A stretch of DNA of 64,000 nucleotides, taken from contig JAUXUT010000149.1 in assembly GCA_030680695.1 (NCBI GenBank), positions 357,000-420,999 on the forward strand, written 5' to 3'. The notes beneath the pieces were generated by a model. The model did no database searches. It had not been told where the DNA came from and saw only the letters and a program-made list of their open reading frames with translations. This DNA is from a bacterium (GTDB taxonomy: Bacteria > Patescibacteriota > Minisyncoccia > Phycocordibacterales > UBA6065). Positions 10,659 to 54,220 of the stretch are shown piece after piece; positions within the stretch are counted from its first letter, which is position 1, and each line of letters starts with the position of its first letter. The position numbers were made by a program, and so were the translations under genes.

Positions 10659-10739
10659 GCCGAGGTGGCGAAATGGCAACCGCAATCGACTCAAAATCGA
10701 TCGTCGCAAGACTTGAGGGTTCGAGTCCCTCCCTCGGCA
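10659..10739 (+). tRNA. tRNA-Leu (anticodon CAA), class II
   Basis: GCCGAGG acceptor pairs with CCTCGGC; anticodon stem ATCGA/TCGAT with loop CTCAAAA; long variable arm; T-arm GAGGG-TTCGAGT-CCCTC. Confidence 0.8.
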
Positions 10740-10740
10740 C

Positions 10741-11316
10741 ATGATGCATACGCCCAATACAGCCTATATCGTAGGGGTGGCTCTTGGCGACGGGAATCTC
10801 TCTAATCCCAATGGTCGAGCCGTCAGGCTGCGTATAACGTGTGACAAAAAGTACCCGAAGGTTATAGAGAACATACTGATATCATTGAGAGTGGGTCTTC
10901 CTGACAACAAGGTAAGTCTCGTGTATCGGAATGCTCGATGCCTTGATATATCATGTTATTCAAATAAGCTTGAGAACTTACTCGGATGGCGAGCCGATCT
11001 TGGCTCGAAATACCTTCAAAGGGTTCATGTGCCTTCTTGGATATTCAGAGATCCCTGGCTTATCCGACCATGCGTTCGCGGTCTTATAGAGACTGATGGG
11101 TGTGTGTTCACTGACAGGGGCTATACTCATGTCAACTTCACGACTATTATTCCGGAACTAGCGACAGATATGGAAAGAATGCTCACAATTCTGGGATTTA
11201 CGTATTCGACTCAACTAATAATTGCGAAAAGCTCAAATCGTAAGCCAAAATATGTCATAAGGATTTGCAAAAGAGGCAAAGAGTTCGTGGACGAATTTGG
11301 TATAGACAAAAATTAG
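10741..11316 (+). CDS. LAGLIDADG homing endonuclease, two-motif single-chain type
   Basis: VGVALGDGNL and VRGLIETDGCV are the two LAGLIDADG motifs. The ATG lies 1 nt after the tRNA-Leu 3' end. Confidence 0.75.
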   Translation: MMHTPNTAYIVGVALGDGNLSNPNGRAVRLRITCDKKYPKVIENILISLRVGLPDNKVSLVYRNARCLDISCYSNKLENLLGWRADLGSKYLQRVHVPSWIFRDPWLIRPCVRGLIETDGCVFTDRGYTHVNFTTIIPELATDMERMLTILGFTYSTQLIIAKSSNRKPKYVIRICKRGKEFVDEFGIDKN

Positions 11317-11356
11317 TTTTGCAAATAAGACTCACCACTGATAATACTGCCTATAT

Positions 11357-12265
11357 ATGAAGAAACAATTACCGAAAATAATCGTTGTATGCGGCCCCAC
11401 CGCGACCGGCAAGAGCGATCTTGCCGTGCTTTTGGCGCGCGAACTCGACGCTGAAATTGTATCGGCAGACTCGCGCCAAGTGTACAGGGGTATGGACATC
11501 GGGTCAGGTAAAATCACCGCGCGCGAAATGAAAAAAATCCCACATCATCTCCTCGACGTTGCCGACCCGCGCAAGGCGCGATACACCGTTGATGATTTCA
11601 AGCGCGACGGTGAAGCGGCCGTGGCGGATATTCTTTCACGCGGCAGGCTCCCTATCATCTGCGGCGGCACAGGATTTTATATCGACGCCTTGGTCAAAGG
11701 TGAAACATATCCAGATGTGCCGCCGAACCAGACATTGCGCAAACAACTCGCCAACAAAACTGTGGTGCAGCTCATGGCAATGATCCGGAAACTCGACCCT
11801 CGTCGTGCAAAAACCCTCGACCCATTCAACAAAGTCCGCATCATACGCGCGATCGAAATCGCGAAAACCCTAGGCTCGATTCCTAAAGTCCGACGCGCGC
11901 CAAAATACAATGCCTTCTACATCGGCCTCACCCTCGACAAAGAATCTTTGCGAGAAAAGATACACGTTCGTCTTATAAAACGTATCAAAGCCGGCATGGT
12001 CGTCGAAGTGGCGAAACTGAAGACTTCTGGAGTCTCATGGAAACGCCTAGAGGCTTTCGGTCTCGAATACCGATACGTTGCGCTCTACCTCCAGAAAAAA
12101 CTGACAAAAGACGAGATGCTCGCCCAACTCGAATCAGAAATCGTCAGATATGCCCGCCGCCAAATGCAGTGGTTTACGAAGAACAAAGGCATATTGTGGT
12201 TATCGCCAGCCGAAAAACAAAAGGCTCTCATTTCAGCCAAAAAATACTTGAGGGTGTCCGCCTAA
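11357..12265 (+). CDS. miaA: tRNA dimethylallyltransferase
   Basis: IIVVCGPTATGKSDLAVLLA...SADSRQVYRGMDIGSGK matches the MiaA P-loop region. Confidence 0.9.
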   Translation: MKKQLPKIIVVCGPTATGKSDLAVLLARELDAEIVSADSRQVYRGMDIGSGKITAREMKKIPHHLLDVADPRKARYTVDDFKRDGEAAVADILSRGRLPIICGGTGFYIDALVKGETYPDVPPNQTLRKQLANKTVVQLMAMIRKLDPRRAKTLDPFNKVRIIRAIEIAKTLGSIPKVRRAPKYNAFYIGLTLDKESLREKIHVRLIKRIKAGMVVEVAKLKTSGVSWKRLEAFGLEYRYVALYLQKKLTKDEMLAQLESEIVRYARRQMQWFTKNKGILWLSPAEKQKALISAKKYLRVSA

Positions 12266-13413
12266 ACATTAGGCTTTTTCCGTTTAAGATACTCTTTCCC
12301 TTTCAACTTTTCCGGCAGGAAGCTCTCCTTATCGTATTTCTTATAATCTTTACCTTGCCCGAGCTCTTTCATGAGTTTGGTCGGTGCGTTTCGAATCTTC
12401 ATCGGCACCGGCAGGTTACCGTACCTCTTTACATCTTCAATCGCGGCAAAGTAAGCGTCATGCGAAGAGCGATCCTTGGCGGCGAGGGCGAGATATGCCA
12501 CGCCATGGGCGAGGTTAATGCCGGCCTCTGGCATGCCGATAGTCTCGACGGCGCGAAACACCTCGTTCGCCACCACGAGCGCCGTCGGTTGGGCGAGGCC
12601 GATGTCTTCTGAAGCGAATATGACCATCCTGCGAGCGATGAATTTCGGATCTTCCCCACCCTCGACCATACGTGCGAGATAATATATCGCCGCGTCTGCG
12701 TCACCGGACCGCATAGATTTTATAAAAGCCGAAATGGTGTCGTAATGCTCGTCACCTTTCTTATCGAAACGGATAAAAACTTGTTCGAAAGCAGACTTGA
12801 GGTTGCTTATCGTCACCGATCCGTACATGCGCTTGGCGTTTTCGAGCGCTGTGATGGCGATACGAGCATCGCCGTTTGCGAGATTTGCGAGCCAATCAAG
12901 AGCGTCCTTAGGAATCTTTATCTTGGTTCGCTTCAATATCTTCTTGATTTCGTCTTCTGAAAGGCTCTTGAGCACGAACACGCGGCAACGTGAGAGAAGC
13001 GCGGAATTCACTTCGAAACTCGGATTTTCTGTGGTGGCACCAATAAGGATAAGCTTGCCCGACTCGACAGACGGCAAAAGAAAATCCTGCTGTGCCTTAT
13101 TAAAACGATGTATCTCGTCGAGGAACAATACTTTCTGGCGCTGATCGAGAAGGTTCATATCGTCCACGATACGGCGTATGTCGTCCTTGCTCGCCGACAC
13201 GGCGGACAATTCATAAAAACGTGCGTCGAGGGCGTTCGCGTATATGCGAGCCAAAGTCGTCTTGCCGACGCCTGGCGGACCCCACAGTATGAATGAGAAC
13301 AGGTGCCTGTCCTCGATGGCCTTACGCAAGGGCTTTTCCTTCCCCACGATTTCATCCTGTCCGACGAAATCGTCAAGTGTCTCTGGCCTAATTTTGTTAG
13401 CTAGGGGTTCCAT
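12262..13413 (-). CDS. rarA: replication-associated recombination protein A (AAA+ ATPase)
   Basis: LWGPPGVGKTTLARIYA Walker A, the MgsA/RarA arrangement, and a C-terminal helical lid. Confidence 0.85.
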   Translation of the reverse strand: MEPLANKIRPETLDDFVGQDEIVGKEKPLRKAIEDRHLFSFILWGPPGVGKTTLARIYANALDARFYELSAVSASKDDIRRIVDDMNLLDQRQKVLFLDEIHRFNKAQQDFLLPSVESGKLILIGATTENPSFEVNSALLSRCRVFVLKSLSEDEIKKILKRTKIKIPKDALDWLANLANGDARIAITALENAKRMYGSVTISNLKSAFEQVFIRFDKKGDEHYDTISAFIKSMRSGDADAAIYYLARMVEGGEDPKFIARRMVIFASEDIGLAQPTALVVANEVFRAVETIGMPEAGINLAHGVAYLALAAKDRSSHDAYFAAIEDVKRYGNLPVPMKIRNAPTKLMKELGQGKDYKKYDKESFLPEKLKGKEYLKRKKPNV

Positions 13414-13483
13414 ATCGTTAATACGCAGAATTCTACACTATCTTTGTAAAAGGCGCGGACGATATGTTATGCTCAGCCCGTAT

Positions 13484-13557
13484 GGGCGATTAGTTAAGTG
13501 GCATAACGAGGCACTCCAAACGCCTTGTCGGGGGTTCGATTCCCTCATCGCCCGCCA
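13484..13557 (+). tRNA. tRNA-Trp (anticodon CCA)
   Basis: GGGCGAT acceptor pairs with ATCGCCC; loop CTCCAAA; T-arm GGGGG-TTCGATT-CCCTC; CCA is encoded. Confidence 0.85.
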
Positions 13558-13577
13558 GGTATTAGCATGCAACGAAC

Positions 13578-13880
13578 GTGAACCCTTTCACCCTCAACAT
13601 GCCAATCGGTTTCATTGCCTGTTGGATTCAACGAGATGACGATGTCATCCTCACCAAAGAAGCGAATCATTACGGTTATGTATCCGACGTATACATCGAA
13701 GAAACTTGGAGAGGTAAAGGTGTCTTCCAAATACTTCTACAGAAAACTATCGATCATCTCAAGACGCGTAACGTGCAATCAATCAAACTAAATGTTGTTG
13801 CACAAAATGAACGAGCGCTCGCAGCTTACTTAAAAGTAGGATTTAAATCTGAAGAGATCAGTCTTCGAATGAAAATATAA
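13578..13880 (+). CDS. GNAT-family N-acetyltransferase, N-terminally truncated (C-terminal half only)
   Basis: YVSDVYIEETWRGKGVFQILLQ is GNAT motif A (R-x-x-G-x-G). At 100 aa it is too short for a complete GNAT fold. It starts 20 nt after tRNA-Trp. Confidence 0.45.
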   Translation: MNPFTLNMPIGFIACWIQRDDDVILTKEANHYGYVSDVYIEETWRGKGVFQILLQKTIDHLKTRNVQSIKLNVVAQNERALAAYLKVGFKSEEISLRMKI

Positions 13881-13968
13881 AAAGTGTATAACTCTATTGT
13901 GCTCTCGCGCACGCATCTTACAATTAGAGTAGGTCGCATTATTCGAAAACATAACAACAGCTACCGAA

Positions 13969-14082
13969 ATGGTTCGAAAGACCAAAAAATCCGCTCGCAA
14001 AGTTGTTCGCAAAGTAAAGAAGACGGTCAAGCGAACGGTGAAGAAAGCGAAGAAGGCAAAGCGCTCCTCTAAGCGCCGATAG
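13969..14082 (+). CDS. 37-aa polybasic small protein (hypothetical)
   Basis: Unlisted ORF: MVRKTKKSARKVVRKVKKTVKRTVKKAKKAKRSSKRR. It has an upstream TTCGAA-17-TATAAC promoter-like element and a shared terminator immediately downstream. Confidence 0.3.
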   Translation: MVRKTKKSARKVVRKVKKTVKRTVKKAKKAKRSSKRR

Positions 14083-14094
14083 CCAAAAAGAAAA

Positions 14095-14128
14095 CCGCCC
14101 CAGATTTGTCTGAGGCGGCTTTCTTTTA
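14095..14128. terminator. bidirectional terminator shared by the polybasic ORF (+) and rpmG (-)
   Basis: CCGCCCCAGAtttgTCTGAGGCGG stem with T-runs on both strands. Confidence 0.6.
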
Positions 14129-14281
14129 TTTCTTGCTTTCCTTGAAGATGACGCGCTTGCGGAGTTTCTTCGAGTACTTCTTGAGCTCGATTTTGCGCTC
14201 TACCTTGCGCTTGTTTTTGCGAGTGTGGTAGACCTCGCCGGTCTCCTTGTTTCGCAGAATAATGAGTTGGTCCTGGGACAT
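14126..14281 (-). CDS. rpmG: 50S ribosomal protein L33 (Cys-less form)
   Basis: MSQDQLIILRNKETGEVYHTRKNKRKVERKIELKKYSKKLRKRVIFKESKK matches the L33 consensus Y-x-T-x-KNKRN...LELKKY. The true start is MSQ. Confidence 0.75.
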   Translation of the reverse strand: MSQDQLIILRNKETGEVYHTRKNKRKVERKIELKKYSKKLRKRVIFKESKK

Positions 14282-14324
14282 ATGGGTAAAAATGATGTTC
14301 GAAGATATTATCACGAGGCCACCT

Positions 14325-15479
14325 TTACCGCAAGTATACGCGCGGCAAAAGCGGATTAATACGAGTCACTATCTCGTAATTTATGGTACCTGCTCGCGAT
14401 GCCAGCGCCTCGGCAGATATCGAGGTCTTCCCTTGCTTGCCAAGCAGAACGACCTCGTCACCAGCCTTGACCAACGGAATGTCTGTTACATCAATCACAG
14501 TCATGTCCATCGACACGCGGCCAAGGACCTTTGCAAGCTTGCCGCCGACAAGCACTTCGCCAGAGTTCGAAAGGCTTCGCGGAAAGCCGTGCCAGTATCC
14601 GACAGGTATAACGGCAATGCGTGAATCGCGCGTTGCTTCACATGTGAGATCATATCCGATCAGTGCGCCTTTCGGCACGAGCTTCACTTCGTTCACAATG
14701 GTCTTCCATGACAACACTGGGGTAAGAGAAATGCCAGGTAAGACACGGCGTGAGTGTGCCTCAATTTCTGGTGACGGCCACAAACCATAGATGGCGATGC
14801 CTGCACGAGCCATATCAAAATAATAATCTGGCGAAAAAAGAAGTCCTGAACTCGCAGATGCGTGGGTGATGGGTGTAAAACCTTTTTCGCGCAAACGAAA
14901 AATTACTGATTTAAAAGCCCCCGCCTGCTTGAGCGAATAATCTTCGTGGGCCGGGTCTTCCATCGCCGCGAAATGCGTGTATGCACCTTCGATGATTGCT
15001 TTTGTCTCGAAGGTCTTGCCTTCCATGACACGCACAGCTTGTTGGACTTGAGACTCGGGTATACCTTGGCGATGAAGACCAGTATCGAACTTCACATGGA
15101 TTTTTAAACGCCTGAACAGCTTTGCCTTGGCAAGAGCACGTAGACTGTCGAGGGACGAGATGGTGAGAGATACTCCTTTTTTTGCCGCAGTCTCGTAAAG
15201 TTCAGGCATGGTGAAGCCTAGGACTAGTACTGGTGACTTAATGCCGGAAGTGCGCAATTCCAAAGCTTCAGCGAGCTCGTCTACCGCGATCCAGTCTGCC
15301 CCGCCTTTTAATGCGGCCTTGGCACATTCAACCATGCCATGGCCATAAGCATTGGATTTAACCACAGCCATCATAGCTGCCCTACCAGATAGAGCAGATT
15401 TAAGTACCGCAGTGTTGCGCGCGATTGCGCCAAGATTGACCTCAAGCCATGTACGGTACGACTGAGACTTAATCTTCAT
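14325..15479 (-). CDS. alr: alanine racemase
   Basis: AVVKSNAYGHG is the PLP-lysine motif, within a 385-aa Alr fold. The true start is the MKIKSQ ATG at 15479; the track's extension runs through tRNA-Tyr. Confidence 0.8.
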   Translation of the reverse strand: MKIKSQSYRTWLEVNLGAIARNTAVLKSALSGRAAMMAVVKSNAYGHGMVECAKAALKGGADWIAVDELAEALELRTSGIKSPVLVLGFTMPELYETAAKKGVSLTISSLDSLRALAKAKLFRRLKIHVKFDTGLHRQGIPESQVQQAVRVMEGKTFETKAIIEGAYTHFAAMEDPAHEDYSLKQAGAFKSVIFRLREKGFTPITHASASSGLLFSPDYYFDMARAGIAIYGLWPSPEIEAHSRRVLPGISLTPVLSWKTIVNEVKLVPKGALIGYDLTCEATRDSRIAVIPVGYWHGFPRSLSNSGEVLVGGKLAKVLGRVSMDMTVIDVTDIPLVKAGDEVVLLGKQGKTSISAEALASRAGTINYEIVTRINPLLPRVYLR

Positions 15480-15488
15480 AATATTTTG

Positions 15489-15571
15489 TGCGCCGAGAGG
15501 GACTCGAACCCCCGATGCCCAGTGGGCGGGAGATTTACAGTCTCCTGGAATAGCCGCTATCCGATCGGCGC
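15489..15571 (-). tRNA. tRNA-Tyr (anticodon GTA), class II
   Basis: GCGCCGA acceptor pairs with TCGGCGC; anticodon stem GGAGA/TCTCC with loop CTGTAAA; long variable arm; T-arm GGGGG-TTCGAGT-CCCTC. Confidence 0.85.
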
Positions 15572-15658
15572 ATATGCTGGCAAATACTACTCTATCAGAT
15601 TTCACCAGTGAGGCAAATGAAAAGCCGCCACGTGGCGGCTTTTCCTGGTGACGTCGGA

Positions 15659-19094: not shown

Positions 19095-19108
19095 ATAGAT
19101 GAATGATA

Positions 19109-20953: not shown

Positions 20954-22510
20954 ATGGCAAAGAAAACCGCACAACAGAATACGACTGTAAAACCAACCGC
21001 TTCGGAAAAGCGTCCACCTGTCGTGGCTGTGATGGGTCATATCGACCACGGTAAATCGACACTTCTCGACTACATCCGAAAATCTAACGTCGTAGACACC
21101 GAAGCTGGCGGAATCACTCAACGCATCAGCGCCTACGAAGTAACCCGGAAATCAAAAAGCGGCACAGAAGAACGTGTCACATTCATCGACACCCCGGGAC
21201 ACGCTGCCTTTTCTGGTATGCGTGAACGAGGCGCAACCACTGCTGACATATGCATACTCGTCGTTTCATCAGAAGACGGCGTCAAACCTCAAACCGTCGA
21301 GGCTTACAAACAAATTAAAACCGCGGGTGTACCGTTCATCGTCGCTATCACCAAAATAGACAAGCCGACCGCGAACGTCGAACGTGCAAAGATTTCGCTC
21401 GCCGAGAATGAAATATACCTAGAAGGCTACGGTGGCGATATCTCATACGTACCTGTATCTGCTAAATCAGGCGATGGTATCGACGATCTCCTCGAACTCA
21501 TACTCCTTACCGCAGAAGTCGCGGAATTCAAGGGCGACCGCAATGCCCTCGCATCGGGCTCGATCATCGAAGCTCATCGCGATCCAAAGAAAGGCATCAG
21601 CGCGACACTTATTGTAAAAGACGGTTCTCTCGGTACTGGCCAGTTCGTTGCGTGCGGAAGCGCTTGGTCCCCTACCCGCATGCTTGAAGATTTCGCTGGT
21701 AAAAAAATCGTCACAGTATCTTTCTCATCCCCACTACGCGTCATCGGCTGGAACGAGGCTCCACAGGTCGGCGGACAGTTCGTCACGTTCGCATCGAAAT
21801 CTGACCTGGAAGACCATCTTGAAACCATACGCGAGTCCAAACTCCGTCCCGTAAACAATCCTGGTGCACCAATCGCCGCGCCCAAGGTGCCAGAAGAGTC
21901 AGACAAGGCCTCGCTCCCGCTCATCATCAAAGCCGACGTCCTTGGCTCGGCCGAAGCTATCGAAAAAGAACTCTCGAAACTCGGTAACGAACGTATCGCA
22001 CCAAAAATCATCCTCGCATCGATAGGAGACATAACCGAATCAGACATCAAAGTTGCAGGCGGTGGCACAGACACCGTAGTACTCGGCTTCAACGTTCGTA
22101 TGGATAGCCAGGCCAAGGCCATGGTCGAACGCCTCGGAATCTCGTACCAATCTTTCGACATCATCTACAAGCTTATCGAATGGGTCGACGAGCTCATCAA
22201 ACAGCGCACCCCGAAAGTCGCAGCCGAAGAAATTGTCGGTAAGGCAAAGATACTCAAGTACTTCAGCGCCATGAAAGACAAACAAATCGTAGGAGGCAAG
22301 GTCATAGACCGAGAAATCGGCCTCGGCCATATCGTGAAAATCGTCCGCCGCGAAACCACCATCGGTCAGGGCGTCATCCGCGAGCTCCAACAGGCCAAAG
22401 TCAAGACATCGACGGTGAAAGAAGGCTTTGAATTCGGCGCCATGATCGATTCCAAGATCGAGCTCGCCCCAGGCGACGTACTCGAAGATTTCGTGGTCGT
22501 GGAAAAATAA
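20954..22510 (+). CDS. infB: translation initiation factor IF-2 (short form lacking N-terminal domains)
   Basis: VVAVMGHIDHGKSTLLDYIRKSNV G-domain, then domains II and C1/C2. Confidence 0.9.
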   Translation: MAKKTAQQNTTVKPTASEKRPPVVAVMGHIDHGKSTLLDYIRKSNVVDTEAGGITQRISAYEVTRKSKSGTEERVTFIDTPGHAAFSGMRERGATTADICILVVSSEDGVKPQTVEAYKQIKTAGVPFIVAITKIDKPTANVERAKISLAENEIYLEGYGGDISYVPVSAKSGDGIDDLLELILLTAEVAEFKGDRNALASGSIIEAHRDPKKGISATLIVKDGSLGTGQFVACGSAWSPTRMLEDFAGKKIVTVSFSSPLRVIGWNEAPQVGGQFVTFASKSDLEDHLETIRESKLRPVNNPGAPIAAPKVPEESDKASLPLIIKADVLGSAEAIEKELSKLGNERIAPKIILASIGDITESDIKVAGGGTDTVVLGFNVRMDSQAKAMVERLGISYQSFDIIYKLIEWVDELIKQRTPKVAAEEIVGKAKILKYFSAMKDKQIVGGKVIDREIGLGHIVKIVRRETTIGQGVIRELQQAKVKTSTVKEGFEFGAMIDSKIELAPGDVLEDFVVVEK

Positions 22511-22885: not shown

Positions 22886-22916
22886 TTCTTCCCATCGTCC
22901 TAAAATTGGACGATGG
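22886..22916 (+). promoter_or_regulatory. perfect 12-bp stem hairpin sequestering the start codon of the downstream homing endonuclease
   Basis: TTCCCATCGTCC-taaaatt-GGACGATGGGAA; the 3' arm contains the ATG at 22913. Confidence 0.35.
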
Positions 22917-23590
22917 GAATACGACATACAGTAAACGAAGTCTTCTTTAGAGATTGGAACCCGAGGATGGCCTACACACTCGGTTACATATTCGCCGACG
23001 GATGTCTTGAGTATTACCCACGATTCAGACAAAAATATGTATCGATAGCAAGTACAGACAAAGATACACTAGAAAGACTGAGAGACTGGATGGATTCAAA
23101 ACATAGGATATCATCGCGCAAATCACCGCATGCTAATGGTGCTCAAATATTTGTACTCCGAATCGGAAATGCGAGACTCTACGATTCACTTACGCTACGA
23201 GGACTTTATCCGAGAAAATCTCTGACCGTGCCTTTTCCCCAAGTACCAAAAGATATACTCCATCATTTTGTGAGAGGCTACTTCGATGGCGATGGCTGTG
23301 TCGCACTTGAAAAAGTGATAAGAAAATCAGGCGCCATACGTCCACGCAAGCTCAATGTCATATTCACCTCAGGAAGCGAGACCTTTCTTCATAACCTCGC
23401 TTTAGCTCTAGAGCGATTCTCCTGCGTTAAGCCGCAAAATATCATACGAGCGTGGACCGCATTCCAACTGCGGTATTCCACAACAGACAGCGAGGCACTG
23501 TTTCGCTTTATGTATTCGGATGCGACTGACGACGAGTATCTTAAAAGAAAACATGCTATATTCATTGAGCATTTTTCCTTGAAGTCCTAG
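22913..23590 (+). CDS. LAGLIDADG homing endonuclease, two-motif type (second copy, different subfamily)
   Basis: LGYIFADGCL and VRGYFDGDGCV motifs. The stop codon overlaps the first nt of tRNA-Cys. An alternative start at MAYTLGY is possible. Confidence 0.7.
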   Translation: MGIRHTVNEVFFRDWNPRMAYTLGYIFADGCLEYYPRFRQKYVSIASTDKDTLERLRDWMDSKHRISSRKSPHANGAQIFVLRIGNARLYDSLTLRGLYPRKSLTVPFPQVPKDILHHFVRGYFDGDGCVALEKVIRKSGAIRPRKLNVIFTSGSETFLHNLALALERFSCVKPQNIIRAWTAFQLRYSTTDSEALFRFMYSDATDDEYLKRKHAIFIEHFSLKS

Positions 23591-23657
23591 TGGCGAAGCT
23601 GGTTAACGCGACGGTCTGCAAAACCGTTATTCGCCGGTTCGATCCCGGCCTAGGACT
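23584..23657 (+). tRNA. tRNA-Cys (anticodon GCA)
   Basis: GTCCTAG acceptor pairs with CTAGGAC; anticodon stem ACGGT/ACCGT with loop CTGCAAA; T-arm GCCGG-TTCGATC-CCGGC. Confidence 0.85.
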
Positions 23658-23667
23658 CAATAAAATA

Positions 23668-36049: not shown

Positions 36050-37138
36050 ATGTCAGAAGAAATCAAGAAGGTAGAGACGGTGATGAGCAAGATGCTTGCT
36101 GATACCGCTACTCCTCCTAACGTTGGCGACCTCATCGAAGGTTCTGTTATTGCTATCGACAAGAAGGGACTCTTCGTAGATCTCCCTCCATTCGGAACAG
36201 GTATCATTTACGGTCGCGAGTATATGCTCGCCCGCGATGTTATCAAGAAGATCAACATCGGAGACAGAGTCTCTGCAAAAATCGTTGATGCGTCGAACAA
36301 GGACGGCTATATCGAACTCTCTCTCAAGGAAGCTCGCCAGGCGCTCATTTGGACCGAGGCAGAGCAGGCAATCGTCGACAAAACCATCCTCGAACTCCCT
36401 ATCAAGGAAGCGAACAAGGGCGGTCTCATCATTGAATGGCAGGGCATCCAGGGCTTCCTCCCTGCGTCCCAGCTTAAACCAGAGCACTATCCACGTGTTC
36501 AGGACGGCGACAAGGATTCTATTCTTGTTGAGCTCAAGAAACTCGTTGGCACCCGCCTCGCAGTTTCGATCATTGGTGCGTTCCCCAAGGAAGGCAAACT
36601 CATTTTCTCTGAGAAAAACTCTGCAGCAGGTGCAGACAAAGCAGTCGCAGTTGCCAAGTTCAAAGTTGGCGATGAAGTTGAGGGTAAGGTCACCGGAATG
36701 GTGGACTTCGGTGTCTTCGTCAAAATCGATGAGGGTCTTGAAGGTCTCGTTCACATCTCTGAAATCGACTGGGCTCTCGTTGAGGATCCAAAGACTCGTT
36801 TCAAGGTTGGCGACAAGGTCAACGTGAAGGTCATCGAGGTTAAGGACGGCAAGGTGTCCCTCTCGATTAAGGCCCTCAAGCCAAACCCATGGTCAGAGGC
36901 AGGTAAGAAATACAAGAAGGACATGGCCGTAAAGGGCGTTGTCATCAAGTTCAACCGCCACGGAGCGCTCGCCTCGATCGAAGAAGGCATCGCTGGCCTC
37001 GTGCACGTCTCAGAGTTTGGCTCGGAAGAAAAGCTCCGCCAGAACCTCGAGCTCGGCAAAGTATATCCGTTCAAGATTACCCTCTTTGATGCGGGCAATC
37101 AGAAGATGACTCTCGCCTTCGCCGGAGAAAAGAAATAG
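36050..37138 (+). CDS. rpsA: 30S ribosomal protein S1 (four S1 domains)
   Basis: Repeated S1 OB-fold units (GDLIEGSVIAI..., GDRVSAKIVD..., GDEVEGKVTGMVDFGVFVKI..., GDKVNVKVIEV..., KGVVIKFNRHGALASI...). Confidence 0.85.
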   Translation: MSEEIKKVETVMSKMLADTATPPNVGDLIEGSVIAIDKKGLFVDLPPFGTGIIYGREYMLARDVIKKINIGDRVSAKIVDASNKDGYIELSLKEARQALIWTEAEQAIVDKTILELPIKEANKGGLIIEWQGIQGFLPASQLKPEHYPRVQDGDKDSILVELKKLVGTRLAVSIIGAFPKEGKLIFSEKNSAAGADKAVAVAKFKVGDEVEGKVTGMVDFGVFVKIDEGLEGLVHISEIDWALVEDPKTRFKVGDKVNVKVIEVKDGKVSLSIKALKPNPWSEAGKKYKKDMAVKGVVIKFNRHGALASIEEGIAGLVHVSEFGSEEKLRQNLELGKVYPFKITLFDAGNQKMTLAFAGEKK

Positions 37139-40783: not shown

Positions 40784-41161
40784 ATGTCGGTTTCCATTCT
40801 AAACAAGACCAAAGGCAAGCTCCCCCGCTTGCCTTTCGCGTCTATGAAAGATGCGGTGCTCGGTGCCGAATATGAACTTTCCCTTGTATTTGTCGGGGAT
40901 GCAGAATCTCGCCGTATCAACATAGAAACGCGCGACAAGGATTATGTCCCGAACGTCCTCTCGTTCGAACTTGATGACTGGTCTGGTGAGATATTCATAA
41001 ACCCAAAAGAGGCTGCCCGACAGGCAAAAGATTTTGGCCGAACGCCTTCAAACATGATTGTATTTCTGTATATCCACGGCCTTTGCCATTTGAAAGGATT
41101 GAAGCATGGTAGTAAGATGGAGAGAACAGAGGTTGGATTCCGTAAGGAGTTCGGCATCTAG
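40784..41161 (+). CDS. ybeY: rRNA maturation endoribonuclease YbeY
   Basis: IHGLCHLKGLKHG is the H-x-x-x-H-x-x-x-x-x-H zinc motif. Confidence 0.8.
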   Translation: MSVSILNKTKGKLPRLPFASMKDAVLGAEYELSLVFVGDAESRRINIETRDKDYVPNVLSFELDDWSGEIFINPKEAARQAKDFGRTPSNMIVFLYIHGLCHLKGLKHGSKMERTEVGFRKEFGI

Positions 41162-46472: not shown

Positions 46473-46474
46473 GC

Positions 46475-47167
46475 CTAGTTCCTCTTGTCGCTTATGACCC
46501 TACCATCGTCGAGCTTCACCACGCGCTTGGCGAGCATACTGTATTCTTCTTCGTGGGTGACCATAATAATAGTCTGTCCTTGGGCGTGAATTTCCTCGAA
46601 AAGCTCCATGACCGTGCGCGAAGATTCATTGTCGAGGTTCGCGGTCGGTTCGTCTGCGAATAGTATCTGAGGCTTATGAGCCAAGGCACGGGCAACAGAC
46701 ACGCGTTGCTGTTCGCCTCCAGAAAGCTGCCCAGGGAGGTTTGTAAACCTGTGACCAAGGCCAACGCGTTCCAATGCTGTGTGGGCTTCCGTATAGGCGA
46801 CCATTTTGGACTTGCCTTGCATCATGAGAGGCAGTGCGACGTTCTCTTCTGCGGTGAGGTCCGGCAGAAGGGCGTAATCCTGGAATACATATCCGAGCTG
46901 ATTAAGACGGAACATGGTTTTCTCGTCCGGCGTCATGGCGTGGGTGTCGGTACCGAATACTATGATCTCACCTGACGTTGGCTCATCAAGGAGCGACAAC
47001 TGATACAAAAAGGTGGATTTACCTGCGCCCGATCGTCCGATGATGGCGATGAATTCCCCTTCCTCGACAGTGAAGTCTATGCCCTTCAATACGTGCGTTT
47101 CTTTATCGCCGTTCTTGAACGATTTTGTGAGGCCGCGTACTTCTATGAGTTTATTCTTGTATTTCAT
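46475..47167 (-). CDS. ABC transporter ATP-binding protein (MacB/FtsE/LolD type)
   Basis: IIGRSGAGKSTFL Walker A, LSGGEQQRVSVARAL signature and ILFADEPT Walker B. The true start is MKYKNK at 47167; the track's 47224 start would overlap the permease by 44 nt. Confidence 0.85.
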   Translation of the reverse strand: MKYKNKLIEVRGLTKSFKNGDKETHVLKGIDFTVEEGEFIAIIGRSGAGKSTFLYQLSLLDEPTSGEIIVFGTDTHAMTPDEKTMFRLNQLGYVFQDYALLPDLTAEENVALPLMMQGKSKMVAYTEAHTALERVGLGHRFTNLPGQLSGGEQQRVSVARALAHKPQILFADEPTANLDNESSRTVMELFEEIHAQGQTIIMVTHEEEYSMLAKRVVKLDDGRVISDKRN

Positions 47168-47180
47168 GGCTTTGGTATGA

Positions 47181-48428: not shown

Positions 48429-48446
48429 GTGGTGATATTACTCTTC

Positions 48447-49916
48447 CTATTTCGCAGGATTAAGGAATATTGTTTCGCCTTCCGTGAGCCCGGACAAAAC
48501 CTCGACGTTGCCGCGGGAATCGGTCGAACCTGTAACTACGATGCGCTCTTGCGCGGACTCGGTCGCCATAAAGACAATTTTCTGGCCATCACGGTCGAGC
48601 ACGGCACGAGAAGGAACCATGACAGTCTCTGGCTTGCGTAGGGTTTCAATCGAAACGTTGGCCGTCATACCAGGGCGAACACGTATGTCCGACTCCTTGA
48701 AAGCGAGTTCGATTTTGTAGTTTGAGACACCATCACGAACGGTCTCAGCAGGATCAATATGCGACACTGTCGCAAAGAACTTTTCTGTCGAGCCATAGGC
48801 GTCGAGGGTGATTTCCGCCTCGTTGCCAATGCGTATACCAGCGATCGAAACCTCTGGCACAAAGGCTTCTATTTTCAGGTCTGGGCTTATAACAGAAACA
48901 AGGGTAGCGTTCTGTGACACAGTCTCGCCCACTTTCGCATCCTGACGCGATACGATGCCGGCAAACGGCGCACGAATAGTGGTGTCAGAAAGCTGGGCGC
49001 GATATGCGGCCACGTTCGCCTCGGCAGCAGCCACGCGGGCGGCTTGCACCGACACATCCGAAAATACGCCGCTCACACGGTCGGTCTGGGATGCGAGATC
49101 GGTGAGGGCTGAGTTCACAGCACTGCGGGCCGATGCAATGTCGGTGCGATATTTATCAATAGTCGCCTGGGTAAGATTCGAATTTGTCTCCATGGTGTTG
49201 ACCGCTATCGCTACATCGTTCAGAAAAGCCACAACGGTCGCACCATATGACTTGGACAAGGCGAGTGCCTCGGCCGCACCAGCAGAATTATTGCCGATGG
49301 TCGCTGCAAGCAAAGACCAACGTGTAAAAACGTCCTCGACATCAATACGGGAGGAGTTAATCCTCATGCGTAGTTCATATCCCTTGAATGACGGCATGAT
49401 TTCTGGGTTTTGAGAACTCGGATTGGTGAAAAGCTGGTCCACCTTGTTGTGGACGGCGTCATCAGCCGCCGTATAGGCGGTGACAATTTTCTGGGCGGTT
49501 TCACCCTGAACGTTATCAACCTTGGCCGCGCCCGTCGAACCAGTCGTACCAACCGAACCACCCTGGAGGGCCGAGAGCTCGGCACGCGCCGCGACGAGAT
49601 CAGATTCGGCCTTCAAAAGATTCGCAGCCACGCTCGCCTTGTCGAGTTCGACGATTGCCTCGCCTGCCCTGACCGAATCTCCCACTGATTTATTCACACT
49701 AGACACAGTGCCACCTGCGGTAAAGGCGAGGTTGGCACTCTGGCGAGAAACCACCTTGCCCGATACGCGCACAGATCGCACAAGGTCCCCTTTTGCGACG
49801 ACGGCCGTTTCTCGCTTACCATTACCATCACCAGTAAACGCAAAGCCCGCTATCGCAAGCACGATGATAATAGCGCCAATAACCAGTCCTTTCTTGCCTT
49901 TAAAGTATTTCTTCAT
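48447..49916 (-). CDS. HlyD/MacA-family periplasmic adaptor (membrane fusion protein)
   Basis: N-terminal TM, biotinyl/lipoyl-like hairpin, long coiled coil and beta-barrel. The C-terminal region TVMVPSRAVLDRDGQKIVFM is typical of membrane fusion proteins. Confidence 0.65.
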   Translation of the reverse strand: MKKYFKGKKGLVIGAIIIVLAIAGFAFTGDGNGKRETAVVAKGDLVRSVRVSGKVVSRQSANLAFTAGGTVSSVNKSVGDSVRAGEAIVELDKASVAANLLKAESDLVAARAELSALQGGSVGTTGSTGAAKVDNVQGETAQKIVTAYTAADDAVHNKVDQLFTNPSSQNPEIMPSFKGYELRMRINSSRIDVEDVFTRWSLLAATIGNNSAGAAEALALSKSYGATVVAFLNDVAIAVNTMETNSNLTQATIDKYRTDIASARSAVNSALTDLASQTDRVSGVFSDVSVQAARVAAAEANVAAYRAQLSDTTIRAPFAGIVSRQDAKVGETVSQNATLVSVISPDLKIEAFVPEVSIAGIRIGNEAEITLDAYGSTEKFFATVSHIDPAETVRDGVSNYKIELAFKESDIRVRPGMTANVSIETLRKPETVMVPSRAVLDRDGQKIVFMATESAQERIVVTGSTDSRGNVEVLSGLTEGETIFLNPAK

Positions 49917-49963
49917 ATTTGTGCCGTCCAGTATACGATATAAGGACGAGTCTTATCAAAGGG

Positions 49964-50542
49964 CTATTTCTCGGTGTTCCTCCGGAGCCATGCGCGTACA
50001 TTACGCACGATAAGGTTAAGGGTGATGACCGCGAGAATGGAAAGGACGATGATACGGAACTCGTACCTGCGTATATCGCCCAGTATTGCCTCTAAAACAT
50101 CGCCGGCCAAGTATCCCGCGCTTACAAATATAATCGCCCAACAAACCGCCCCGAGCGCATTCCACATAAGGAACCGCGAGGTAGGAATACTTGTTGTGCC
50201 CATGCTAAACGGCACGACATGTCGAAATCCGTACATGAACCGCATTGAAAAGGATGCAATTTCTGGCCTCCTTTCAACAAAGGCGCTCGGCCTGCGTATG
50301 AGGTGTCGAAAATATGGGAAACGCGCGAATATCCAGTCTCTTTTGTACCTGCCAAGGAAGAAGAAAGACCAGTCTCCAACGACTGCTCCTATAGCGGCGA
50401 ACAATACGAGCATGGAAAATGACAGGTATTCACCGTGAGAGGAAAGGCCGCCCAGCAATACTACCGATTCACCTTCGAATATTGATCCAACAAAAACGGC
50501 GAGGTAGCCATATGACTCGATGAATTGGGTGACTGGGAGCAT
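49964..50542 (-). CDS. DedA-family (SNARE-associated) membrane protein
   Basis: ESYGYLAVFVGSIFEGESVVLLGGL... is the DedA signature [F/Y]-x-x-x-R-x-x-x-G region. Confidence 0.7.
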   Translation of the reverse strand: MLPVTQFIESYGYLAVFVGSIFEGESVVLLGGLSSHGEYLSFSMLVLFAAIGAVVGDWSFFFLGRYKRDWIFARFPYFRHLIRRPSAFVERRPEIASFSMRFMYGFRHVVPFSMGTTSIPTSRFLMWNALGAVCWAIIFVSAGYLAGDVLEAILGDIRRYEFRIIVLSILAVITLNLIVRNVRAWLRRNTEK

Positions 50543-50640
50543 GGTTGTGTCATGCTATCACATAGTGAATAGTGTCGGGAATCGGTCACGGGTCCTCGCC
50601 TGCTGACTCGGCCCGCGTTATGTCTGCTTTTTCTTTGCGT

Positions 50641-50712
50641 TGTGACCCTACGGGGAATCGAACCCCGATTACAGCCTTGAAAAGGCCGTGTCCTAACCGT
50701 TAGACGATAGGG
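50641..50712 (-). tRNA. tRNA-Glu (anticodon TTC)
   Basis: Reverse complement gives GGCCCTA...TAGGGTC-A; anticodon stem CGGCC/GGCTG with loop TTTTCAA; T-arm CGGGG-TTCGATT-CCCCG. Confidence 0.8.
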
Positions 50713-50802
50713 CCGGATAAACTTTCCGACGGCTATCAATATAGCCCTTTTTTGCCTTTTTGGCAAAAAAGGGCTAGTATGATGCGGCTAAGACAACACC
50801 AT

Positions 50803-50889
50803 GGAGAGGTGGCAGAGTGGTCGAATGCACCAGTTTCGAAAACTGGCAGGCTCGCAAGGGTCTCGGGAGTTCGAATCTCCCCCTCTCCG
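50803..50889 (+). tRNA. tRNA-Ser (anticodon CGA), class II
   Basis: GGAGAGG acceptor pairs with CCTCTCC; anticodon stem CCAGT/ACTGG with loop TTCGAAA; long variable arm; T-arm GGGAG-TTCGAAT-CTCCC. Confidence 0.85.
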
Positions 50890-50895
50890 CAAGAC

Positions 50896-50926
50896 CAAAA
50901 AATCCATGCGAAGGCATGGATTTTTT
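50896..50926. terminator. perfect bidirectional terminator after tRNA-Ser
   Basis: AAAAAATCCATGC-gaag-GCATGGATTTTTT. Confidence 0.65.
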
Positions 50927-51119
50927 GCGTCTCTGCGGCAGAGTAAAGAGATGAGAAAGGCGGAGCGCCCGAGCGAAGCGAGGCCTCCCACATGGGAGGC
51001 TTTGTTATTCTCAAATCTTTATAAAATCTGGCGAGATGTAATTACCCCCTTATTATACACCCAAACATAGGTATTTGTCAAGCACCTCTCAGCACCACAC
51101 ATAAGGTAAGATTATTTCC

Positions 51120-51461
51120 ATGATAAAGGAACAATTCACAGGCTTTTTCCATTTCGTCCGCACACAAGGTGTGGCCGGTTTTGCAATAGGCTTCATCCTC
51201 GGTCGGGCGGTGTCGGACCTTATTGGCTCGTTCGTAAATGACATCATAAACCCTGTTATTGGTCTGGCGCTCACCCGTTTTACTGACCTCGCTTCCCTGT
51301 CTGTCTCGATCAATGGCTCGACCATCGGATATGGCAAGTTCATCTCGCTTTTCATCAACTTCCTCATCCTTGCGGCGGTCGTGTATTTCGGTATAAAAAA
51401 GCTTTCCGAGAAGTTCGATCAGCCGAAAGATGCCCCGCTTGCCCCGGGTGTGAAGAAATAG
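51120..51461 (+). CDS. mscL: large-conductance mechanosensitive channel
   Basis: MIKEQFTGFFHFVRTQGVAGFAIGFILGRAVSDLIGSFVNDIINPVIGLAL matches the MscL TM1 and periplasmic loop consensus. Confidence 0.8.
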   Translation: MIKEQFTGFFHFVRTQGVAGFAIGFILGRAVSDLIGSFVNDIINPVIGLALTRFTDLASLSVSINGSTIGYGKFISLFINFLILAAVVYFGIKKLSEKFDQPKDAPLAPGVKK

Positions 51462-51475
51462 TAAAGTGTCCTTAT

Positions 51476-51552
51476 GCGCGCTTAGCTCAGTTGGCTAGAG
51501 CATCTCATTGACGTTGAGAGGGTCGGGGGTTCAAGTCCCTCAGCGCGCACCA
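51476..51552 (+). tRNA. tRNA-Val (anticodon GAC)
   Basis: GCGCGCT acceptor pairs with AGCGCGC-A-CCA; TAGCTCAGTTGGCTAGAGC D-arm; anticodon stem TCTCA/TGAGA with loop TTGACGT. Confidence 0.85.
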
Positions 51553-51553
51553 C

Positions 51554-54220
51554 ATGGACTGGTACAAGCTTTCTCCTTCAGAAACGTTCGCCGAGCTCGG
51601 TTCAAGAGAACACGGACTTTCCGATGCCGAGGCAAGGCGAAGGCTCGCAGAAAAAGGCCCTAATTCCCTGCCCGAGGCCAAGACAGACTCCCTGATTTCA
51701 ATATTCTTACGGCAATTCGCGAGCCCTATCATATATATACTCCTGGGCGCCGCCACGATTGTCCTTCTGCTCGGTGACATCGTGGACGCCTCGATCATCG
51801 CGGCGGTGCTTTTCATAAACGCGATTGTCGGTGCAGTCCAAGAAGGCCGCGCGCAGAACACGATGGCAGCCCTGCGTCGCATGGTGCAGACAACCGCTGT
51901 TGTGCTCCGTGATGGCAAAGAAGCGATCATGCCGTCCGAACAGGTTGTCCCCGGCGACATCATCGTCCTTCGTGAAGGCGACAAAGTTCCTGCCGACGCC
52001 CGTATCGCTGAATCGAACGCCTTGAAAGCCGAGGAAGCGGCCCTAACTGGTGAATCATCGTCCGTGCTTAAAATGAGTGATTCGATCGCGGCCAACGACT
52101 TGCCTGCATCAGACCAAACAAACATGGTGTTCCGCGGAACATACATCATCGGGGGCGACGCACGAGCGGTTGTTGTTGCAACTGGCAAGGATACAGTTAT
52201 CGGTGGCATATCGCAGATGCTTGAATCGCTCGACACTGAAGTGCCTTTGAAGGCGAGCATCCGCAAGCTTTCTCATATTATCGTTGGTGTGGTTCTTTCT
52301 GTATGTGCTCTGATATTTACTATCGGAATAATGCGAGGCATACCGTTCGAAGATATGTTCGTCACCGCCGTTGCGGTCGCCGTATCGGCGACACCTGAAG
52401 GTCTGCCTGTTGTTGTGACAATTGTGCTCGCAGCAGGAATGTATCGCATGAGCCGCCAAAACGCCCTTGTAAGGAAGCTTCAGGCAGTCGAGGCGCTCGG
52501 ACAAGCGACCGTTATCGCCGTAGACAAGACAGGCACCATCACTCTCAACCAAATGGCCGTTGAAAAGCTCTGGGTATCATCAGGTATGCATGACATCGAG
52601 GCGAACGGATACAATCCCGAAGGCGGAGTTTCCATGAACGGAAATAAACTCGAACCACTCGACCATGCAGATTTGCTCGCCGCAGGAAGGATCGCGGCCT
52701 TCACGGCTGGATCTGCTATCGCATATTCCGAAGAGGAAAAAGAATGGAAACGTCTTTCTGGCGACCCTACCGAAACCGCCCTTCTCATCTTGTCGAAAAA
52801 AATCGGCTTCGAAAAATCCGTCCTTGAATCAGAACATCCGCGCGCCCTCGACATTCCGTTCAGTTCTCATACCAAATACCACGCATCTATTAATAAGACA
52901 CCTGACGGTCTCTCCTTCTCGGTGGCTGGAGCTCCGGAAGTTGTGCTCGAAAACAGTTCGACCATATGGAAAAACGGAAAATCTGTGCGCCTTACAAACG
53001 AGGACAAAAGCGCCATTGAATCGGCCTTACTCGGTATGTCGTCGCTCGGTCTGCGCGTTGTTGCTCTTGCTGTACGAATGGGTCATGAATCGGCGATCGT
53101 GCCCGATTCCCTGCCAGAACTTTGTTTCGTCGGCCTCGCCGGTATAAGTGACAGTGTACGAAGCGATGTGAACGACGCACTTAGACGCGCCCAAGAAGCT
53201 GGGGTAAAAACCGTAATGATAACCGGCGACCATCCTGAAACCGCCAGGGCCATAGCCCAAAAGGTCGGCATATGGAAAGAAGGCGACCGTGTGATAACCG
53301 GAAAAGACCTTGCAGCCTTAAACGAAGTGGAGCTTGCCCATGTCCTTGGCGAAACAAGTGTATTCGCTCGCGTCGCACCACAAGACAAGCTCAAAATAAT
53401 CGAGGCCTATCGCAAGCGCGGCGACACGATTGCGATGACGGGTGACGGAGTGAACGACGCACTATCCCTCGCCGCAGCTGACCTTGGTGTAGCCATGGGA
53501 AAAATTGGTACTGAGGTGGCCAAAGAAGCCGCAGACATCGTCCTTCTCGATGACAGTTTTGCGAGCATCGTCGCCGCGATTGAAGAAGGTCGAAACGTGT
53601 ACCGATCTATCAAGAAAGTTATACTTTATCTGTTCTCTACTTCTATCGGCGAGATACTGACCATAACTTTCGCCATGATTATTGGCTTCTCGATTCCTTT
53701 GCTTGCCACCCAGATTCTTTGGTTGAACTTCGTCACAGGTAGTTTCCTTGTCATATCGCTCGCCCTTGAACCGCGCGAAAAGAATCTTCTCATGCCATCC
53801 AAGCGCAAAACATCTCTCATTGATCGCCTTATGGTTGGAAGAATACTGCTCATCGCCCCAACTATGGCGATTGTCTCGCTTATAATGTTTGCTTCTTATA
53901 TCGAACAAGGATTTGTTGTTGCCTCGACTGTTGTGCTCTGTACCCTTGCTGTATGTCAGTGGTATCACACATTCAATTGCCGCACGGAAAGGCATTCGGT
54001 ATTTGGACGGACACTTTGGAGAAATAAATATCTCCTTGGTGCAATCGCTCTTGTTGTCGGACTTCAGATGCTTGCTGTATACGCGCCGTTCATGCAGAAA
54101 ATCCTCTACACTACACCAATTGGATTATCAGACTGGCTGATTATCGCCGGTGCGTCGCTCGCTGTGGTTCTCGTCGAAGAAATCCGCAAGGCGTTCGTCC
54201 GTCTGACCGTCAGTAAATAA
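51554..54220 (+). CDS. P-type cation-transporting ATPase (type IIA Ca2+-ATPase-like)
   Basis: DKTGTITLNQM phosphorylation site, TGDHPETARAIA, GDGVNDALSLAAADLGVAMG hinge, and 10 TM helices. The ATG is 1 nt after the tRNA-Val CCA. Confidence 0.9.
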   Translation: MDWYKLSPSETFAELGSREHGLSDAEARRRLAEKGPNSLPEAKTDSLISIFLRQFASPIIYILLGAATIVLLLGDIVDASIIAAVLFINAIVGAVQEGRAQNTMAALRRMVQTTAVVLRDGKEAIMPSEQVVPGDIIVLREGDKVPADARIAESNALKAEEAALTGESSSVLKMSDSIAANDLPASDQTNMVFRGTYIIGGDARAVVVATGKDTVIGGISQMLESLDTEVPLKASIRKLSHIIVGVVLSVCALIFTIGIMRGIPFEDMFVTAVAVAVSATPEGLPVVVTIVLAAGMYRMSRQNALVRKLQAVEALGQATVIAVDKTGTITLNQMAVEKLWVSSGMHDIEANGYNPEGGVSMNGNKLEPLDHADLLAAGRIAAFTAGSAIAYSEEEKEWKRLSGDPTETALLILSKKIGFEKSVLESEHPRALDIPFSSHTKYHASINKTPDGLSFSVAGAPEVVLENSSTIWKNGKSVRLTNEDKSAIESALLGMSSLGLRVVALAVRMGHESAIVPDSLPELCFVGLAGISDSVRSDVNDALRRAQEAGVKTVMITGDHPETARAIAQKVGIWKEGDRVITGKDLAALNEVELAHVLGETSVFARVAPQDKLKIIEAYRKRGDTIAMTGDGVNDALSLAAADLGVAMGKIGTEVAKEAADIVLLDDSFASIVAAIEEGRNVYRSIKKVILYLFSTSIGEILTITFAMIIGFSIPLLATQILWLNFVTGSFLVISLALEPREKNLLMPSKRKTSLIDRLMVGRILLIAPTMAIVSLIMFASYIEQGFVVASTVVLCTLAVCQWYHTFNCRTERHSVFGRTLWRNKYLLGAIALVVGLQMLAVYAPFMQKILYTTPIGLSDWLIIAGASLAVVLVEEIRKAFVRLTVSK

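Follow-up and report, generated by a model that had tools for sequence, protein, structure and literature searches.

How is a protein-coding gene expressed when its start codon lies directly against the 3′ end of a tRNA gene? The question is raised by a 64,000-nucleotide (nt) stretch of bacterial DNA (GenBank assembly GCA_030680695.1, contig JAUXUT010000149.1, forward-strand positions 357,000 to 420,999; hereafter the window), in which genes for a P-type ATPase, an alanine racemase (alr) and a LAGLIDADG-family protein begin 4, 9 and 1 nt past the discriminator base of tRNA-Val, tRNA-Tyr and tRNA-Leu(CAA), respectively. The original prediction listed four such genes, proposed that each is co-transcribed with its tRNA and released as a leaderless or near-leaderless mRNA by RNase Z/P cleavage, and suggested a genome-wide expression strategy. 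Upon rereading the junctions base by base, all four sets of coordinates proved correct. Three solid tRNA–gene junctions were confirmed, namely those at which the genes are intact and their starts fixed by homology (Val/ATPase, Tyr/alr and Leu(CAA)/LAGLIDADG); the fourth, tRNA-Trp/GNAT, involves a 5′-truncated remnant. At the three junctions, we consider tRNA processing the best explanation for the origin of the predicted near-leaderless mRNAs, a reading to which we attach moderate confidence. Given the sequence, co-transcription with the tRNA is very probably the only route by which these three intact and conserved genes would be expressed.

The host belongs to the Paceibacterota, within the candidate phyla radiation (CPR), and the relatives of its ATPase and alr proteins are likewise from Paceibacterota/Parcubacteria. 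The window represents about 10% of its genome. The comparison set comprised the window and 82 loci of related CPR genomes, with ~13 kb per relative; individual loci are named by numbers of the form L0xx. The window has 11 tRNA genes according to ARAGORN, all of them confirmed by Rfam. The tRNA-Tyr gene was missed in the whole-window Rfam gathering scan and scored 50.4 bits in a local scan, which is a filter artefact rather than a sign of a defective gene.

Three intact genes at tRNA 3′ ends

A single C separates the CCA of tRNA-Val from the ATPase ATG at 51554. The encoded protein has a complete P-type architecture (Pfam), with position 1 of the Cation_ATPase_N profile aligning to residue 3; another in-frame start codon is not reached until 76 codons downstream. 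The same succession of mscL, tRNA-Val and ATPase is found in L001/L002, whose ATPase is 67% identical, and in L003 (86%). The junction of these relatives reads gcgcA-CC-ATG, where that of the window reads gcgcA-CCA-C-ATG; in L001 (9925-10003) and L003 (1158-1235), the ATPase ATG begins with the final A of the tRNA-Val CCA. ATPase homologues at 60% and 52% identity lack the tRNA. A metagenome scan with the ATPase returned five loci, of which two were useful (52% identity); both were without the tRNA and instead have an extended -10 box of textbook form, 7 nt ahead of the ATG. At one locus of 52% identity (L085), the sequence reads TGATATAAT, 7 nt and then the ATG.

The alr product contains both Ala_racemase domains (Pfam). 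Four of its N-terminal residues, R9, W11, E13 and N22, are invariant across 29 aligned homologues, and ATG 15479 is the sole start codon between tRNA-Tyr and R9. A start farther downstream is impossible because R9, W11 and E13 are invariant. The alr open reading frame (ORF) also remains open through tRNA-Tyr, which gives a spurious 426-amino-acid reading. A terminator-like hairpin after clpB, together with two -10-like boxes, appears to mark the start of the tRNA-Tyr–alr unit. The order clpB, tRNA-Tyr, alr is widespread among relatives, and a tight junction, with 3 to 10 nt past the discriminator, recurs in six of them (L007, L011, L012, L014, L049 and L054). In L091, L092 and L006, tRNA-Tyr is followed by a hairpin (e.g., AAAACCAGCttcgGCTGGTTTT), then by TAGTAT, TACCAT or TACTAT, and after 7 to 9 nt by the alr ATG. 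Across 72 alr loci, a TANNNT hexamer ended 5 to 9 nt before a candidate ATG in 34, compared with 13 and 11 at two control offsets, and an SD-like (Shine-Dalgarno-like) motif was present in only seven.

Downstream of tRNA-Leu(CAA), the 191-amino-acid protein matches Pfam LAGLIDADG_3 (E = 4e-9), and its N-terminal YIVGVALGDGN resembles the motif helix. This first LAGLIDADG helix begins at residue 8, and homologues align across 96-100% of the query. The gene sits inside an otherwise direct junction of tRNA-Leu(CAA) with miaA. In most relatives, miaA is immediately 3′ of this tRNA, in many of them 1 to 13 nt past the discriminator; the spacer is 2 to 13 nt in L007, L009, L024, L031, L059 and L063, and in L090 the junction reads ccccggcA-c-ATG, with a geometry identical to that of the LAGLIDADG junction in the window. 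The ancestral partner of tRNA-Leu(CAA) was miaA. The order tRNA-Leu(CAA), LAGLIDADG, miaA also occurs in L093 and L094, with spacers of 8 to 10 nt, and, judged by gene order only, in L095; in these three loci the LAGLIDADG gene lies around positions 2900-3600. A decayed LAGLIDADG fragment occupies the same site in L080 (8114-8395), and the gene is missing from it in L007, L009, L031 and L090. Sporadic occupancy of one conserved site and a decayed copy, as expected of a homing endonuclease gene, were thus both found. More than 1,000 LAGLIDADG homologues of ~190 amino acids, at 50-65% identity, are present in CPR metagenomes. In L003 a LAGLIDADG-like ORF lies just 5′ of tRNA-Val, and in L057 a LAGLIDADG homologue lies 5′ of tRNA-Tyr.

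When an ORF remains open across a tRNA, its start has to be placed at the first start codon past that tRNA, and this would be a ground for supposing that the three starts are mis-assigned and that the true starts lie further downstream with their own signals. Yet the 76-codon distance and the early profile match of the ATPase, the invariant residues of alr and the position of the first LAGLIDADG helix, together with the near-complete coverage by its homologues, each speak against later starts. We regard mis-assignment as the least probable of the alternatives considered here, and downstream alternative start codons were rejected by homology.

The tRNA-Trp junction differs. The GNAT ORF aligns to just residues 71-162 of the 164-amino-acid GNAT of the closest relative and covers only positions 44-116 of the Pfam Acetyltransf_1 profile. 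In L091, tRNA-Trp is followed by a 103-amino-acid ORF and then by a full GNAT gene. We therefore rejected this pair as an example of tRNA punctuation, the ORF being a 5′-truncated remnant (a deletion scar or pseudogene). The DNA 3′ of tRNA-Trp varies among relatives, with cupin, CYTH, ankyrin, GNAT and unknown ORFs (L006, L007, L009, L012, L014, L090 and L091). A tRNA-targeted integrative island was considered for this region and rejected: no second copy of the 3′ 25 nt of tRNA-Trp was found with up to three mismatches allowed, hence no 3′-end direct repeat, and no integrase-like ORF was found in 13558-14324.

Table 1. Positions of the junction tRNAs, the genes beside them and nearby signals in the window
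Feature	Position	Strand	Remarks
rpmE (L31)	626..898	-	TATAGT ends 9 nt before ATG; apparently promoter-driven, leaderless or near-leaderless
Promoter-like TTGAGA-17-TAGATT	10620..10648	+	-10 box ends 10 nt before +1 of tRNA-Leu(CAA)
tRNA-Leu(CAA)	10659..10739	+	Discriminator A at 10739; CCA not encoded; C at 10740
LAGLIDADG_3 homing-endonuclease-like gene, 191 amino acids	10741..11316	+	ATG 1 nt past the discriminator of tRNA-Leu(CAA)
miaA (IPP transferase)	11357..12265	+	Own promoter-like TTTGCA-16-GATAAT at 11318-11345
tRNA-Trp(CCA)	13484..13557	+	Body to 13554; encoded CCA at 13555-13557
GNAT acetyltransferase remnant, 100 codons	13578..13880	+	GTG start; 20 nt past the CCA of tRNA-Trp
alr, alanine racemase, 384 amino acids	14325..15479	-	ATG at 15479, 9 nt (CAAAATATT) past the discriminator of tRNA-Tyr
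tRNA-Tyr(GTA)	15489..15571	-	Discriminator A at 15489; CCA not encoded
clpB terminator-like hairpin, then -10-like TAGAGT and TAGTAT	15572..15639	-	Hairpin at 15639-15627; upstream of tRNA-Tyr
mscL	51120..51461	+	TAAGAT 7 nt before ATG; gene ends 14 nt before tRNA-Val
tRNA-Val(GAC)	51476..51552	+	Body to 51549; encoded CCA at 51550-51552; -10-like TAAAGT ends 8 nt before +1
P-type (Ca2+-type) ATPase, 888 amino acids	51554..54220	+	ATG 1 nt past CCA and 4 nt past the discriminator

Spacing and recurrence across the clade

Beyond the individual junctions, we examined the distances between tRNA genes and their neighbors; the gene calls in these spacing statistics, as in the signal statistics below, are heuristic (longest ORF, with starts trimmed at tRNAs). 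Gaps of 10 nt or less occurred in 24 of 84 co-oriented pairs in which a tRNA precedes a gene start, compared with 1/48 divergent and 0/40 convergent gene/tRNA pairs and 6/63 cases in which a gene end precedes a tRNA start. The excess over divergent pairs, which carry the same start-calling bias, was significant (Fisher p = 6e-5), as was that over all other tRNA sides taken together (7/151; Fisher p = 8e-7). The tRNA-to-gene rate matches that between co-oriented genes (125 of 431), which reflects operon-like spacing. At 23 junctions, the spacer measured from the discriminator was 0 to 10 nt, and 21 of these genes start with ATG. The spacers of the 23 are G-poor, with c, ca, cat, caa, caaa, caat and similar sequences.

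Tight junctions might also be neutral outcomes of a shrinking genome, or of deletions and insertions at the 3′ ends of tRNAs, without expression logic and with some of the ORFs dead. The truncated GNAT remnant and the variable region 3′ of tRNA-Trp fit this account, as do the mobile-type insertion of the LAGLIDADG gene and the tRNA-Tyr–alr junction of the window, which looks like a recent collapse of a terminator-promoter module. However, alr, the ATPase gene and miaA are intact and conserved and must be expressed; junctions recur across 45-86% protein identity; tight gaps are confined to the co-oriented tRNA-to-start arrangement; and the 3′ end of tRNA-Trp is free of a direct repeat. A purely neutral origin is thus improbable.

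Taken together, the comparisons across relatives show that one and the same position is filled either by a tRNA 3′ end or by a leaderless promoter, and that lineages switch between the two states.

Signals for transcription and translation initiation

The original prediction held that the junction genes have room for neither a promoter nor an SD site. This holds for the three intact genes, where no such motif is present: GGAG, GAGG and AGGA are absent from the 1- to 9-nt spacers, and no promoter-like or terminator-like site was found inside the junction tRNAs or spacers. In all three, the tRNA acceptor stem lies at the usual -10 position, with no TANNNT. Elsewhere in the window, the picture is that of a promoter-rich, SD-poor genome: an SD motif accompanies very few genes, and a TATAAT-like box stands 6 to 12 nt ahead of many ATGs. 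A TANNNT hexamer ends 4 to 12 nt before the start in 18 of 59 window genes, compared with 7 of 59 in a control window, and an SD-like 4-mer precedes 7 of 59. Of the 697 genes called in 79 related loci, 83 have a TANNNT that ends precisely 6 nt ahead of the start, compared with ~18 per background position, and SD 4-mers are weak clade-wide. A -10 box 6 to 9 nt before many ATGs is the classical bacterial leaderless signature; with so many genes arranged in this way, their transcripts are expected to start at the AUG or beside it. The apparent leaderlessness of rpmE, also claimed earlier, was borne out by its -10 box (Table 1). As for a genome-wide strategy, the claim stands for leaderless promoters (~30% of window genes); the tRNA route accounts for 3 of 7 co-oriented tRNA–gene pairs in the window.

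In roughly half of Parcubacteria, the anti-SD motif is absent (PMC9297842). We found no statement in the literature, within the incomplete coverage of our search, that CPR genes are leaderless. Three other genes in the window may bear on initiation in an SD-poor organism: a short IF-2 of 518 amino acids (20954-22510), which matches positions 80-581 of a 587-position NCBIfam profile and is without the long N-terminal extension; an S1 protein of 362 amino acids (36050-37138); and YbeY (40784-41161).

The tRNAs carry signals of their own. Among 137 clade tRNA genes, TANNNT peaks 8 to 9 nt upstream of +1 (43 cases), and a T occupies -1 in 73; this peak indicates that tRNAs are served by promoters of their own and that their 5′ leaders are very short. 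Such boxes, ending 8 to 9 nt before +1, are seen upstream of all 11 window tRNAs and clade-wide, and would give 5′ leaders of only ~1 to 3 nt. TAT precedes all four junction tRNAs.

A different possibility is a cryptic promoter inside each tRNA gene, from which a leaderless mRNA would arise as a primary transcript, with no need for tRNA processing. Promoters of the leaderless kind are the rule in this organism, and the 9-nt alr spacer includes CAAAAT. But positions -12 to -7 before the ATGs fall in the G+C-rich acceptor stem (tccctcggca, agcgcgcacc), which contains neither a TANNNT hexamer nor a promoter-like match; CAAAAT ends 3 nt before the alr ATG, where the clade optimum is 6 nt; and tRNA function constrains the tRNA sequence. 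Cryptic promoters in tRNA bodies are therefore highly improbable and were rejected on sequence.

A more serious competitor accepts co-transcription with the tRNA and places translation on an ordinary 30S-type, SD-independent internal initiation at an unstructured A/U-rich start, perhaps S1-assisted, as in Bacteroidetes or the operon-internal genes of the host; the processed 5′ end would then be irrelevant. The host must already start many operon-internal genes without an SD, it encodes S1, and the spacers are G-poor and A-rich, with some of 8 to 10 nt. A precedent exists in Flavobacterium, in which mRNA structure tunes initiation without an SD (PMC6847099). At spacers of 1 to 4 nt, however, the 30S footprint would coincide with the folded acceptor and T arms, leaving the ribosome no access to the AUG as long as the tRNA stays folded beside it, and removal of the tRNA leaves a 5′-terminal AUG in any case. 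The ATG bias of the tight junctions is what 5′-end-dependent initiation predicts, and the same genes bear leaderless-type promoters where they are not joined to a tRNA. We consider internal initiation unlikely, although it is the most credible of the alternatives. Instead, the junction mRNAs are probably translated like leaderless mRNAs because of this ATG bias, the absence of an SD and the leaderless arrangement that these genes show in other genomes.

Two ORFs end inside a tRNA gene rather than beginning after one. At 22913-23590, a 225-amino-acid ORF with a promoter of the leaderless type (TAAAAT and 6 nt ahead of its ATG) runs into tRNA-Cys (23584-23658), so that its stop codon falls within the 5′ end of the tRNA, and in L003 an ORF at 466-1167 ends 10 nt inside tRNA-Val (1158). 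RNase P cleavage would be predicted to strip the stop codon from such mRNAs. Near alr, rpmG (L33) lies downstream at 14126-14281 (-), as in L091 and L092, and a 37-codon Lys/Arg-rich ORF lies near it at 13969-14082 (+); both are absent from ORF lists with an 80-amino-acid minimum.

tRNA 3′ processing and parallels in other systems

The proposed sequence of events begins at the promoter of the tRNA, where transcription would start 1 to 10 nt upstream, and for tRNA-Val perhaps also at the mscL promoter; from its position, mscL may be co-transcribed with tRNA-Val. With no terminator between the two, polymerase would then continue past the tRNA and into the gene. An endonuclease that matures tRNA 3′ ends would cut after the discriminator or after C74, freeing an mRNA with a 5′-monophosphate and a leader of 0 to 9 nt, which would be translated in an SD-independent, 5′-end-dependent manner, like promoter-made leaderless mRNAs. 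As the tRNA must be matured anyway, its 3′ cut would make the mRNA 5′ end.

Features of the clade tRNAs are relevant to this cut. Among the 137 tRNA genes (window and L001-L084), only 25 encode CCA and 112 do not; an endonucleolytic 3′ cut followed by CCA addition is therefore expected to be routine in these cells, in keeping with established tRNA biology. A C comes directly after the discriminator in 117 of the 137, and in 51 the discriminator is followed by CAA. This conserved C may be a 3′-processing signal or a sign of a cut after C74; in Propionibacterium acnes, cleavage between the two Cs was observed (PMC3848588). CPR genomes keep RNase J, RNase III and PNPase (PMC12641178).

The earlier assignment of the mRNA 5′ end to RNase Z/P cleavage stands in part. 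RNase P cuts on the 5′ side of a tRNA, where it could define only the 3′ terminus of an mRNA lying upstream, for instance that of mscL; only a 3′-side, RNase Z-like endonuclease could make the 5′ end of the downstream mRNA. The broader proposal of co-transcription and a processed leaderless mRNA retains the support of junction anatomy, tRNA -10 boxes, the lack of an intervening terminator, recurrence among relatives, leaderless promoters elsewhere and the SD-poor context. It loses the role of RNase P and the GNAT example, and 9- to 10-nt spacers would be near-leaderless at best.

Several points weigh against the proposal. The 5′ ends, the read-through and the mode of translation are all deduced from DNA, and the statistics rest on the heuristic gene calls. 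The 8- to 10-nt spacers of the window alr and of some relatives exceed the 0 to 5 nt usually called leaderless, and leaders of 9 to 10 nt may need trimming or 30S/S1-type initiation. The closest relatives, L091 and L092, are without the tight tRNA-Tyr–alr junction, which suggests that the junction in the window is a recent collapse in this lineage and not an ancient conserved state. An encoded CCA, as in tRNA-Val, inhibits RNase Z of the B. subtilis type. The classical RNase Z model does not appear to fit simply for this CCA-encoding tRNA, above all where CCA and ATG share an A: in L001 and L003, obtaining both a whole tRNA and an intact AUG from one precursor requires CCA repair. No gene for RNase Z or a CCA-adding enzyme turned up in the window, which covers ~10% of its genome, or in the related loci, at ~13 kb per relative. 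For this search, ~50 window proteins were compared with Pfam and NCBIfam, and the related loci were queried by tblastn with RNase Z of B. subtilis.

By analogy, the closest known counterpart of these junctions is the tRNA punctuation of mitochondria, reportedly described by Ojala, Montoya and Attardi in 1981. The mRNAs freed by mitochondrial tRNA excision are leaderless. RNase P and RNase Z/ELAC2 excise the tRNAs from polycistronic transcripts (PMC5716156, PMC6924987). In both cases, a tRNA 3′ end abuts a start codon with a spacer of zero to a few nt, and the mRNA has neither its own promoter nor an SD; the arrangement of mscL, tRNA-Val and ATPase resembles the mRNA–tRNA–mRNA order. A 5′ end set by tRNA 3′ processing, with translation starting at a 5′-terminal AUG, would be a further likeness, here proposed from sequence. 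Unlike mitochondria, the setting is a bacterial chromosome with many promoters, in which each tRNA has its own and only some genes are fed by a tRNA; spacers reach 9 to 10 nt; and there is no sign of stop codons completed by polyadenylation.

Within bacteria and archaea, promoter-driven leaderless mRNAs are established in Actinobacteria, Deinococcus-Thermus and archaea (PMC3898074, PMC4633059, PMC3160421, PMC6028130). Many window and clade genes share with them the lack of an SD, a preference for ATG and a -10 box ~6 to 7 nt before the start. The three junction genes differ in having no -10 box, and their mRNAs would bear a processed 5′-monophosphate rather than a primary 5′-triphosphate. Mixed tRNA–protein operons such as E. 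coli thrU-tyrU-glyT-thrT-tufB likewise place tRNAs and a protein gene in one transcription unit, as would be the case here, with the tRNAs cut from the shared transcript. The tufB type, however, keeps a long SD-bearing leader, and the junction genes have neither leader nor SD. The toxin MazF generates leaderless mRNAs post-transcriptionally in E. coli (as cited in PMC3848588), and the cut proposed here would similarly fall just 5′ of the AUG. MazF differs in being a stress-induced toxin that cuts at ACA sites and leaves a 5′-OH, whereas here the cut would be part of constitutive tRNA maturation. Finally, the window LAGLIDADG gene resembles free-standing homing genes in its LAGLIDADG_3 match, its length of ~190 amino acids, the occupation of one intergenic site in several genomes and the decayed copy in L080. 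It differs in lying, outside any intron or intein, exactly at a tRNA 3′ end, from which it is predicted to borrow tRNA transcription. No description of bacterial leaderless mRNAs derived from tRNA processing, and hence no published bacterial precedent, was found in a full-text literature search of incomplete coverage.

A wider reading, which we offer tentatively and at somewhat less than even odds, is that tRNA genes serve as interchangeable substitutes for leaderless promoters in Paceibacterota. Repeated deletion of terminator-promoter segments would have brought genes against tRNA 3′ ends, after which the 3′ endonuclease would set the mRNA 5′ end, perhaps by cutting after C74, which would give an exact 5′-AUG at A-c-ATG junctions. 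This would amount to an independently evolved bacterial tRNA punctuation, in which the output of housekeeping genes (alr, miaA, a cation pump), and of a homing endonuclease as well, is coupled to how tRNAs are transcribed and matured.

The junctions also have practical consequences. Gene callers now extend junction ORFs into the tRNA, as in L095 and in the overlong alr reading, and recognition of the arrangement, if it is real, would improve the prediction of gene starts and operons in thousands of CPR genomes. The arrangement further raises the question of which enzyme cuts a CCA-bearing tRNA that shares its terminal A with an AUG. If the proposal is true, tRNA processing would be a third bacterial route to leaderless mRNAs, beside primary transcription and toxin cleavage; it would help explain gene expression in CPR bacteria without an anti-SD; and it would show that the punctuation logic of mitochondria can also evolve in a cellular bacterium whose genome is reduced.

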